A stretch of 45,585 nt of DNA from the IMG/VR virus record IMGVR_UViG_2582580752_000004. One strand, 5' to 3'. The notes below the pieces were generated by a model, which saw only the letters and a list, made by a program, of their open reading frames with translations, had not been told where the DNA came from and made no database searches. This document shows, piece by piece, positions 5,630 through 7,960 of this stretch. How positions within the stretch are numbered: position 1 is the first letter of the stretch; each line of letters begins with the position of its first letter. The DNA comes from a virus. Its lineage: Duplodnaviria; Heunggongvirae; Uroviricota; Caudoviricetes. Made by a program: the position numbers and the translations under genes.

Positions 5630-5980
5630 TGAAAATAACATGAAACCTTTGGATTCTGGTGTTTCAGTGGATGGGAAAAGAGCAGATACATAGAAAATGA
5701 ATAGCAATAATTCACAGTCTGGATGTTGTTTGTATGCTTATAAAATGATCCTAGTATGCATTGCCGGAGTTGAATCAGCTCCAATGAAGAAACTGAGAGG
5801 AGTATTTAGAAGATAGCTAAATGGATGTAATTATTAGTATCTAAAAAATAGTATTTTTGAAATGGGTCTAAGAACACAACAATGTACAAATGAGAAGTTA
5901 TCTTTTAATATGTTCAAAGACCCATTAGGATTGATATCAGTTATGTTAGCTAGATTGATAAAGTGATTACATATTTTCTG

Positions 5981-6754
5981 TTATATGCTGAAATGAATAA
6001 TGCTATTCCAGAGTGCAGCAGAGAAAGTCTCCTGATGATTGAGCTCTGGAAATTGTACAATAGAAAAATTACTGTATTTTTCTGTCAAAATATTTCTCAA
6101 AACAGATTCCGCTTTGATGGCTTCAGGATATAAAGATGCGGAGTAATCAAGGCTAAGATTTCCGTTAAGCAAGCATATACTTTTAGTGTGCTTTGATTCT
6201 GATATATCATCTTTAATTATCTTGATGATTCTTTCATTCTGCCATAGAAGTGATGGTGCAGATATATAATAATAGTTAAAGCATGAATTATTTTTTAAGC
6301 AATCAAGCACAAAAATAGCACCTAGCGAGTGCCCCCATATACCGATTCTGGAACTGTTCGGAGCAATAGTACTAACCCATGGCATGATCTGAGTTAGTAA
6401 TAATTCTCGGAAAGACTGGCTTCCTCCACCAGTAAAGTAGATCCATGCTGGTTTAGAGTTATCAACAATAGCATTTTCACCATCAGGAGTATAATCGTAA
6501 GCACGGCGATGAATGCTAAGGTTATTCCAAGATTCATAACCAAGTGTAACTAACACTGGTGGATTGGGTAGTGCATCAATAACAGGCAGAATATCAGAAA
6601 TGTAATTGTTGGCACTATTCCCATCAAGTATATAAAGAGTTGCATTATTTTTTTTAATGTTTTTTGGAGTAAAAATACATATTTTATATTTGGTGTCATG
6701 GTTAATTGAGTTAAATATGCGTGTTTGACAATGAATGTCCATATGTTTAGTCAT
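5981..6754 (-). CDS. Alpha/beta-hydrolase fold esterase (GHSLG nucleophile elbow), AT-rich moron
   Basis: 257 aa with GxSxG motif IWGHSLGAIF; lower GC than flanking phage genes; opposite strand. Confidence 0.7.
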   Translation of the reverse strand: MTKHMDIHCQTRIFNSINHDTKYKICIFTPKNIKKNNATLYILDGNSANNYISDILPVIDALPNPPVLVTLGYESWNNLSIHRRAYDYTPDGENAIVDNSKPAWIYFTGGGSQSFRELLLTQIMPWVSTIAPNSSRIGIWGHSLGAIFVLDCLKNNSCFNYYYISAPSLLWQNERIIKIIKDDISESKHTKSICLLNGNLSLDYSASLYPEAIKAESVLRNILTEKYSNFSIVQFPELNHQETFSAALWNSIIHFSI

Positions 6755-7301
6755 GCGTTCTCCCCATGAGCATTAAAGGATGCTTAAGATATGCTATGTC
6801 ACTGATAAAAAATTTGTTGTGTGTGTTTAGTTATTTTATCTACCTCCATTATGATTTAAGACTGATATATGTTATCAGCAAAGGTACATCGTTATTATTT
6901 TACCTGTCAATACATTTGATATTGATTATCGTTTACATCGCTTGCTTAGGAAATTGAAGGCAGGTAACTATCATGTCAATGAACTAACCCACAGTCTAAC
7001 GTACTTCTTTCCCCAATCACCAACAACCAAATTCCTGTTATCACCACTGGGATTTTGGCGCAACTTCATGGTGCAGAGGTAAATAGCATCAAGCAAAATC
7101 TCTTTTTCCGTTGTTGTCCTTATGGGACGTCTGTCTTTCTGACCGATTTCATATTGGCGAGGTAATGGGAAGTTAAGTAGAATAGCTGCGGGTGCTTGAG
7201 GCTATCTGCCTCGGGCATGAACACCAACGGCAGATAGAGAAAAGCCCCAGTTAACATTACGCGTCCTGCAAGACGCTTAACATTAATCTGAGGCTCAATC
7301 T

Positions 7302-7514
7302 ATGAACGGCAAATCTAGGTTAGCCTCTTACGTGCCGAAAGGCAAGGAGAAGCAGGCTATGAAGCAGCAAAAGGCGATGTTAATCGCCCTGATCGTCATC
7401 TGTTTAACCGTCATAGTGACGGCACTGGTAACGAGGAAAGACCTCTGCGAGGTACGAATCCGAACCGGCCAGACGGAGGTCGCTGTCTTCACAGCTTACG
7501 AACCTGAGGAGTAA
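7302..7514 (+). CDS. mok: Mok-type in-frame leader ORF overlapping hok
   Basis: 70-aa ORF whose last 51 codons are hok; GAGG SD before the ATG at 7302. Confidence 0.5.
   Translation: MNGKSRLASYVPKGKEKQAMKQQKAMLIALIVICLTVIVTALVTRKDLCEVRIRTGQTEVAVFTAYEPEE
7359..7514 (+). CDS. hok: Hok/Gef family type I toxin
   Basis: MKQQKAMLIALIVICLTVIVTALVTRKDLCEVRIRTGQTEVAVFTAYEPEE, the hallmark Hok/Gef sequence; AGGAGA SD. Confidence 0.88.
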   Translation: MKQQKAMLIALIVICLTVIVTALVTRKDLCEVRIRTGQTEVAVFTAYEPEE

Positions 7515-7582
7515 GAGACCAGGCGGGGGAGAAATCCCTCGCCACCTCTGATGAATCAGGCATCCTCAACGCACCCGCACTT

Positions 7583-7609
7583 AACCCGCTTCGGCGGGTT
7601 TTGTTTTTT
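7583..7609 (+). terminator. Rho-independent terminator downstream of hok
   Basis: Hairpin AACCCGC-TTCG-GCGGGTT followed by a T run. Confidence 0.55.
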
Positions 7610-7681
7610 CCTGGCATTCTGGTTTACAATTCGCACGCCAGCCTGAACAACTGGCACCTGCTGCGCCAGCAGAGACAACCG

Positions 7682-7960
7682 ATGGCGCACGATACCAAAT
7701 TATACAATTCTGATGATTCTGCCGTCTTTGCCAGCAGGCGCGGACGGTGTTTTCACGCATTCAAATCTGACTGGTACCAGCATCCCCCATGCACTGAAGA
7801 ACAGGCCGAATGGCTCATTCAGTGTTACCGCAGGCGCGGATGCGAGGTTAAAAAAGCCCTTAGCCTCGACTACCGTCACTGGATAATCTCCGTCAGGCTC
7901 CCTTACTCCGAACGGCCACCGCGTCCGTCCCGCACATTCCAGCAACGGATCTGGAGGTAA
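7682..7960 (+). CDS. Hypothetical nin-region protein
   Basis: Start placed at MAHDTK because the upstream ATG at 7601 lies inside the hok terminator; stop 2 nt before the next gene. Confidence 0.4.
   Translation: MAHDTKLYNSDDSAVFASRRGRCFHAFKSDWYQHPPCTEEQAEWLIQCYRRRGCEVKKALSLDYRHWIISVRLPYSERPPRPSRTFQQRIWR

Follow-up and report, generated by a model that had tools for sequence, protein, structure and literature searches.

An apparently intact hok/mok/sok toxin-antitoxin module with a hokD-type toxin and a hokW-type leader in a lambdoid prophage

Here we describe a type I toxin-antitoxin locus in the Caudoviricetes record IMGVR_UViG_2582580752_000004 of IMG/VR, of which the whole stretch of 45,585 nucleotides was analysed (hereafter the window). 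The segment from 7154 to 7609 is very likely, with a probability that we put at about 0.88, an intact hok/mok/sok module, with a toxin of hokD type behind a leader of hokW type, and it occupies the nin-equivalent region of a lambdoid prophage. Gene order points to this placement, the replication genes lying on one side of the unit and Q on the other. The locus is already known: hok/sok is a textbook family, identical DNA is annotated as hokD in RefSeq, and experiments have characterised hokW-sokW, an almost identical locus in Sakai prophage 5 (Stx2 phage Sp5; Takada et al. 2021, PMC8621323). By itself, the finding confirms that the prophage has a standard, apparently functional hok/sok module. 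The toxin gene and its leader frame comprise three features:

7302-7514, plus strand: mok frame, 70 codons in the phase of hok and with the same stop, an N-terminally extended Hok taken from the list of open reading frames (ORFs)
7344-7349, plus strand: hok Shine-Dalgarno sequence AAGGAG, 9 nt before the hok ATG and invariant across the family
7359-7514, plus strand: hok coding sequence, 51 amino acids (AA), MKQQKAMLIALIVICLTVIVTALVTRKDLCEVRIRTGQTEVAVFTAYEPEE, a Hok/Gef-family inner-membrane toxin identical in both protein and DNA to K-12 hokD (relF)

The initial annotation, made from the letters of the DNA, had recognised a Hok/Gef toxin with an in-frame Mok-type leader ORF and a strong downstream terminator, and each of these was borne out. 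The identity of the toxin follows from a Pfam match to PF01848 (HOK_GEF) over residues 6-47 (82.9 bits with a cut-off of 22, E=1.2e-23), together with the Rfam-matched leader described below. Hok also matched PHROG 251, 'MokW-like host killing' (E=2.8e-33), and the identical protein WP_000813254.1 carries the RefSeq name 'type I toxin-antitoxin system toxin HokD', while homologues in phage records are named MokW, HokD, 'host killer' or gef. In overexpression assays (10.1101/2025.08.07.668861), HokD has served as the toxic positive control. By analogy with the known members of the family, Hok would be toxic and neutralised by Sok, and killing would follow the decay of Sok.

The mok frame opens with ATG 7302, which is preceded by the Shine-Dalgarno sequence GAGG (7290-7293), and runs through 70 codons to the stop that it has in common with hok; by analogy, hok would be translated through mok by translational coupling. 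In relatives of the hokD/hokW group (with differences seen in loci L003, L088, L156, L176 and others of our collection), mok is mostly a 70-AA frame in phase with hok, and in others it is either 68 AA long in the +1 frame or only 19 AA long. This varied configuration fits the established view that translation of Mok matters and its sequence does not. The 68-AA form arises by a 1-nt insertion (AAAGGTCAAGG), which also improves the -35 hexamer of sok to TTGACC in loci that have TAATCT as -10 hexamer, and the 19-AA form of some relatives ends near the hok start.

The hok messenger, with its promoter, switch elements and terminator, was resolved as follows:

7154-7183, plus strand: hok/mok promoter from a promoter scan, with -35 TTGGCG (7154-7159), an 18-nt spacer and -10 TAGAAT (7178-7183)
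7190-7606, plus strand: full-length hok mRNA of about 417 nt, with a minimum free energy (MFE) of -172.9 kcal/mol and z=-7.3 versus shuffled sequences
7190-7201, plus strand: tac, GGGUGCUUGAGG, the 5' end of the mRNA, which pairs with fbi in the full-length and with ucb in the 3'-trimmed form
7242-7250, plus strand: ucb, AAGCCCCAG, unchanged in every family member aligned, R1 and hokC included
7290-7327, plus strand: Sok-target hairpin, GAGGCU...AGCCUC, which holds GAGG 7290-7293 and the mok AUG (7302) and has its loop at 7306-7313
7522-7543, plus strand: stem-loop in the 3' untranslated region (UTR), GGCGGGGGAGAAAUCCCUCGCC, stable in full-length and truncated folds
7564-7576, plus strand: fbi (fold-back inhibition), CCUCAACGCACCC, complementary to the mRNA 5' end
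7583-7609, plus strand: intrinsic terminator of the hok mRNA from a terminator scan, AACCCGC-TTCG-GCGGGTT (stem 7583-7600) with a T-run to about 7609, common to K-12 hokD

Rfam family RF01794 ('sok') matched 7190-7364 on the plus strand over its full model (positions 1-157) with 107.1 bits (gathering cut-off 59, E=1.7e-23). The last position of this model falls on the hok AUG, so that it represents the hok leader in sense orientation and not the antisense RNA. Its position 1 coincides with G7190, the predicted start of the hok mRNA, and this start and the -10 hexamer are invariant in 68 unique related loci that encode an identical Hok protein. Judged from its sequence, the hok promoter would be of moderate strength.

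In the fold of the full-length mRNA, tac and fbi form a duplex of 12 bp with one bulge (-21.5 kcal/mol), which is present in both the MFE and the centroid structures, and ucb (7243-7250) pairs with dcb/SD-mok (7288-7295), including the mok Shine-Dalgarno sequence. The fbi element is conserved and covaries in distant homologues, and the tac-fbi pairing is supported by compensatory changes in Pantoea, where GGGCGCUUGAGG is paired with CCUUAAGCGCCC, as well as in the R1-type plasmid locus, where GGCGCUU is paired with AAGCGCC. In these models the tac-fbi pairing corresponds to the 5'-3' lock of the R1 paradigm, and the full-length mRNA is predicted to be translationally inert while its two ends are paired. 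When the 3' end was removed in silico (fold of 7190-7560), tac re-paired with AAGCCCC at 7242-7248 and the hairpin at 7290-7327 formed, reproducing the published activation pathway. Folded locally, this hairpin, the third helix of the Rfam model, reaches -14.7 kcal/mol (z=-3.5). By analogy, we infer that the 3' end of the hok mRNA is processed in vivo, and the stem-loop at 7522-7543 is presumed to act as the stop point for 3' exonucleolytic trimming. A match of isrK (RF01394), a prophage-encoded Salmonella small RNA (sRNA), to the hok 3' UTR (7523-7604, plus strand) was rejected, with 27 bits against a cut-off of 50 and only the two-hairpin-plus-terminator layout in common. Weak matches to reverse-strand 'sok' (15.7 bits), ceN48, rsmX and CRISPR-DR were regarded as noise.

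The antisense RNA had escaped confident identification in the initial annotation, which had proposed promoter and fold prediction on the minus strand as a check. Indeed, this check placed Sok, as a prediction at the level of sequence, at about 7310-7240, where it overlaps the mok start:

7345-7317, minus strand: sok promoter, with -35 TTGCCT (7345-7340), a 17-nt spacer and -10 TAACCT (7322-7317)
7310-7240, minus strand: Sok RNA of about 71 nt with predicted ends, consisting of an unpaired tail at the 5' end (GCCGUUCAUAGAUUGA...), then a long hairpin and finally GGGGCUUUU

The sok promoter pattern occurs once in the window, compared with 0.01 occurrences expected by chance; its hexamers and spacer match those of sokW in Sakai prophage 5, and its blocks are invariant across the family, R1 included. 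The predicted RNA starts 7 nt downstream of the -10 hexamer and folds into a hairpin followed by a U-run (-31.5 kcal/mol, z=-4.6). Its start at 7310 lies 8 nt inside mok (7302), the same offset as that of the annotated sokC in K-12 mokC, and in length it conforms to sokW, for which 71 nt of complementarity are reported. This sokW RNA is visible on northern blots and loses its antitoxin activity when the -10 hexamer is mutated (PMC8621323).

Several points weigh against taking the locus for an intact and working module. The sok promoter is weak by consensus, with 4/6 and 3/6 matches in its two hexamers, and a generic promoter and terminator scan flagged neither the sok promoter nor a Sok terminator; it is thus homology with sokW and sokC, together with the fold, that places Sok here, and not consensus strength. 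Two bases between the sok -10 hexamer and the start (7312 and 7315) differ from sokW. On the protein side, Hok scored below the cut-offs of two NCBIfam models, NF007279 (Hok subfamily; 48.5 bits, cut-off 73) and NF007290 (HokA equivalog; 40.2 bits, cut-off 89), both of which describe other Hok subgroups. Finally, two insertion sequence (IS) elements in the late region of the prophage may impair late-gene expression and so prophage inducibility; were the prophage not inducible, a role of the locus in assisting lysis would be moot.

Sequence conservation across the 68 loci delimits the unit. Between 7189 and about 7600 entropy stays close to zero, and it is high on either side, in agreement with the boundaries marked in the initial annotation, and divergence per site is 0.014 at third-codon positions of hok versus about 0.5 in the unrelated flanks. 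So strong a contrast in conservation between unit and flanks speaks for selection acting on the unit as a whole. The possibility of a decayed remnant with a non-functional regulatory region, which the initial annotation had also entertained, finds its model in K-12 hokD of the Qin cryptic prophage, where the same coding sequence has lost the entire leader, and similar leader replacement is seen in a few IMG/VR loci. It is nevertheless highly improbable for the locus described here, in which promoter, tac, ucb, target hairpin, mok, sok promoter and fbi are all present, and it is contradicted by the complete leader and by an Rfam score far above the gathering cut-off.

The comparison with K-12 hokD (relF) makes this difference explicit. 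The 51-AA toxin, its coding DNA and the 3' UTR with fbi and terminator are identical, and the downstream neighbours (rem-like ORF, DUF968/ydfU and Q) are alike; in K-12, however, the end of relBE replaces everything upstream of the hok Shine-Dalgarno sequence, leaving no hok promoter, tac, ucb, mok or sok. An intact hokD locus thus becomes visible, in contrast to the truncated K-12 copy. The leader, on the other hand, resembles that of hokW-sokW, which likewise lies in a lambdoid prophage between the replication genes and Q. Between the start site and the hok start codon the two leaders hardly differ, and this stretch takes in tac, the sok hexamers and spacer and the long Sok hairpin; fbi is shared as well, mok is in frame with 70 codons in both, and Hok residues 1-44 are identical. 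The two loci differ in the Hok C-terminus (...VFTAYEPEE here and ...VFVDYESEK in HokW), at 6/20 positions of the Sok 5' tail and target loop, and in the sequence 3' of fbi, where the present locus has the K-12 hokD-type terminator.

Similarity extends to hok/sok (parB) of plasmid R1, which shows the same order of tac, ucb, target hairpin with the mok start, sok promoter, Hok/Gef toxin, 3' hairpin and fbi, and in which the sok promoter also overlaps the hok Shine-Dalgarno region. The leader blocks GCUUGAGGCU, AGCCCC, GAGGC, GCCUCUUAC and CAAGGAGAAG are conserved between the two, and the tac-fbi pairing is kept by compensation. Unlike the present locus, R1 hok/sok is plasmid-borne with a proven role in post-segregational killing and has mok in another frame than hok; Hok identity to the HokW/HokD group is about 44% (PMC8621323), and an insertion relative to the Rfam consensus lengthens the Sok hairpin here by about 16 nt. 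In hokC/mokC/sokC (gef) of K-12, mok is in frame with hok and shares its stop, and the start of the oppositely oriented sokC falls 8 nt within mokC, as predicted here; that locus differs in being chromosomal, outside a prophage and flanked by IS186, with a shorter Sok hairpin (59 nt).

Following R1 and hokW-sokW, a mechanism can be proposed in which the full-length hok mRNA would be inert through tac-fbi pairing until slow 3' trimming frees tac, which would then pair with ucb, expose the target hairpin and activate a stable mRNA. Abundant but unstable Sok would bind the target loop at the mok start via its 5' tail, blocking translation of mok and hence the mok-dependent translation of hok, and RNase III would cleave the duplex. 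Once Sok synthesis stops, whether by prophage induction, DNA loss or a transcription shut-off imposed by an infecting phage, the stable mRNA would be translated, and Hok would insert into the inner membrane and collapse the membrane potential. As hok is oriented with the early-right operon, induction could bring about read-through transcription that disturbs the convergent sok promoter.

By analogy with hokW-sokW, the most likely biological role of the present locus would be faster host killing and lysis upon induction, with prophage addiction or abortive infection as possible additional effects. For hokW-sokW, toxicity, dependence on the Sok promoter and partial dependence on RNase III and Hfq have been reported; after mitomycin C treatment sokW disappears and HokW appears in a RecA-dependent manner, and deletion of the locus delayed growth arrest by about 40 min and halved phage release (PMC8621323). 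An alternative is that the locus, although intact in sequence, is physiologically silent, neither killing after loss nor responding to transcription arrest, and persists as selfish or hitch-hiking DNA. Chromosomal hokA, hokB and hokC, when tested in the 1990s, gave negative results for post-segregational killing and for a response to transcription arrest (summarised in 10.1101/2025.08.07.668861), agreement with consensus is modest for both the sok and the hok promoter, and the prophage carries the IS insertions in its late region. We consider this unlikely, given that every regulatory element is intact, that the unit is much more conserved than its flanks (0.014 versus about 0.5 per site) and that the near-identical hokW-sokW is active in its native prophage (PMC8621323).

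A further alternative concerns the DNA next to the locus. The initial annotation had placed hok beside an AT-rich moron and had reasonably suggested that it might stabilise this cargo or act in defence; the AT-rich neighbour is real, with a GC content of 0.29-0.35 over about 5700-7050. In this alternative, the main role of the locus would be abortive infection against lytic phages such as T4, or addiction that anchors the upstream cargo. R1 hok/sok lowers T4 plating, according to papers citing Pecota and Wood 1996, and just upstream of hok 36 different inserts, including defence genes, are found in 78 related prophage loci, with relBE occupying the K-12 slot and paa/adfO the PPompW slot. The T4 effect was, however, measured on a high-copy plasmid, as far as those citing papers relate it, hok was not enriched near defence systems in a genome-wide Hok survey, and the cargo gene in the window has no PADLOC match. 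The direct data on hokW-sokW reveal a pro-phage rather than an anti-phage effect (PMC8621323). Defence or cargo anchoring as the main role is therefore doubtful, and assistance to host killing and lysis upon induction is preferred.

The variable slot itself extends over about 5650-7170, just upstream of the hok promoter, and conservation ends at about 7170. Its 36 contexts (loci L005-L084) are unrelated to one another and many are AT-rich; those of relatives include KwaB, PtuB, PD-Lambda-2 (PD-Lambda-2_C), a PD-T4-6/Stk2-like kinase and PDC-S39, besides relBE in K-12 Qin and paa/adfO in PPompW. In the window, the slot holds an AT-rich ORF of 257 AA on the minus strand (5981-6754, GC content about 0.30-0.35), which matches PHROG 8493, gave a weak Pfam esterase match (E=0.005) and is alpha/beta-hydrolase-like, with alpha/beta hydrolase as its RefSeq name; PADLOC and NCBIfam scans of this ORF returned no match. 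The same ORF is split by IS1203 in O26:H11 strain 11368. The slot could serve to study the exchange of morons and defence genes in lambdoid phages.

Within the conserved stretch 7189-7600, a 22-nt patch at 7295-7316 is the sole part where entropy among the 68 loci is not near zero. In the Sok-target hairpin it makes up the loop and the upper part of the stem, and the recognition tail at the 5' end of Sok is its complement. Divergence in the patch amounts to 0.32 sites per pair versus 0.014 at third-codon positions of hok, and at least 18 alleles were distinguished when hokW-type loci were added to the 68 (L002-L221). All nine main alleles (9/9) keep the hairpin, at -13.2 to -14.7 kcal/mol, and 6-9 of the 20 positions in the Sok tail set the allele in the window apart from each of the other main alleles. 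The patch varies among Photorhabdus copies too. As a tentative reading, for which the odds are somewhat below even, the patch is a fast-evolving specificity code, linked to the idea that the hok/sok unit marks the 3' border of a cargo/defence hotspot in lambdoid prophages. If the initial Sok-target pairing decides specificity, as in R1, co-resident hok/sok copies would be mutually orthogonal, and each copy would report the loss or induction of its own prophage only. The variation could reflect relaxed constraint on the loop, because a cis-antisense RNA stays complementary automatically, or equally selection for orthogonal antitoxins among co-resident prophages. Co-resident copies carried different alleles in 6/7 genomes, as expected by chance given the number of alleles. 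A YUNR U-turn in the target loop, searched for by eye, is found in the hokW allele (CUGA) and is not evident in that of the window; it was not used as evidence. A recent Hok survey did not analyse Sok and Mok elements, by its own statement, and prophage hok/sok copies could be a natural system for how antisense RNAs discriminate paralogues.

The prophage location given in the initial annotation is supported by repressor, replication, RusA, Q, lysis and terminase genes in the window. The order is that of a lambdoid prophage, with an S24-type repressor (1099-1734), a YdaT-type gene, a DnaC-like replication protein, DUF1627 and DUF977, followed by the AT-rich ORF, hok, a rem-like ORF, DUF968, RusA, Q, transfer RNA (tRNA) genes, lysis genes and terminase. 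When the first 25 kb of the window were compared with complete genomes, coverage in the best match was 79%, with 98.7% identity, and the prophage is a mosaic. Directly downstream of hok, the rem-like ORF (7601-7960, plus strand) matches PHROG 1212 and has no Pfam match; K-12 Qin and phage Rac have such an ORF in the same place, under the annotation Rem or 'antirepressor'. Between Q and the tRNA cluster lie genes for a CPBP/Rce1-like membrane protease (9902-10726, plus strand) and an AraC-family regulator (11348-12061, plus strand), which are moron-type cargo in the late-promoter region. The tRNA cluster downstream of Q consists of Met-CAT, Arg-TCG and Arg-TCT (12090-12341) and is followed by a TerB-domain ORF (12439-12942) and a match to the STnc100 sRNA family (13111-13283, 100.8 bits). 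No stx genes are apparent downstream of Q, at the position that they have in Stx phages. The two IS elements (15282-16495, plus strand, and 16825-18069, minus strand) are located between a SASA/DUF1737 esterase gene (13421-15256) and the lysis genes; one belongs to the IS3 family, with an ALIL frameshift pseudoknot at 15563-15679, and the other to the IS110 family.

Copies of the locus are widespread. Many complete genomes of O26, O145 and O103 Shiga toxin-producing E. coli (STEC) share a 551-bp region with 100% identity, annotated there only as hokD. Among 5,426 complete E. coli genomes, matches were obtained in 4,737, and most of the locus is present in 3,435, with a median of 2 and a maximum of 10 matching places per genome. 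The RefSeq copy examined (O26:H11 strain 11368) has a hokD coding sequence only and no mok or sok feature, an annotation gap that is hereby corrected, and the coordinates of tac, ucb, target hairpin, fbi and Sok can guide the annotation of the thousands of STEC copies that are identical or nearly so.

The Tyr47 codon (TAC) of hok lies within UUACGAA at 7495-7501, a tRNA-Arg-like motif edited by TadA (A-to-I). The local fold around this motif gave no significant hairpin (z=+0.5), and no structural claim is made on editing. TadA-dependent recoding of Tyr to Cys has been reported for hokD mRNA (10.1101/2025.08.07.668861).

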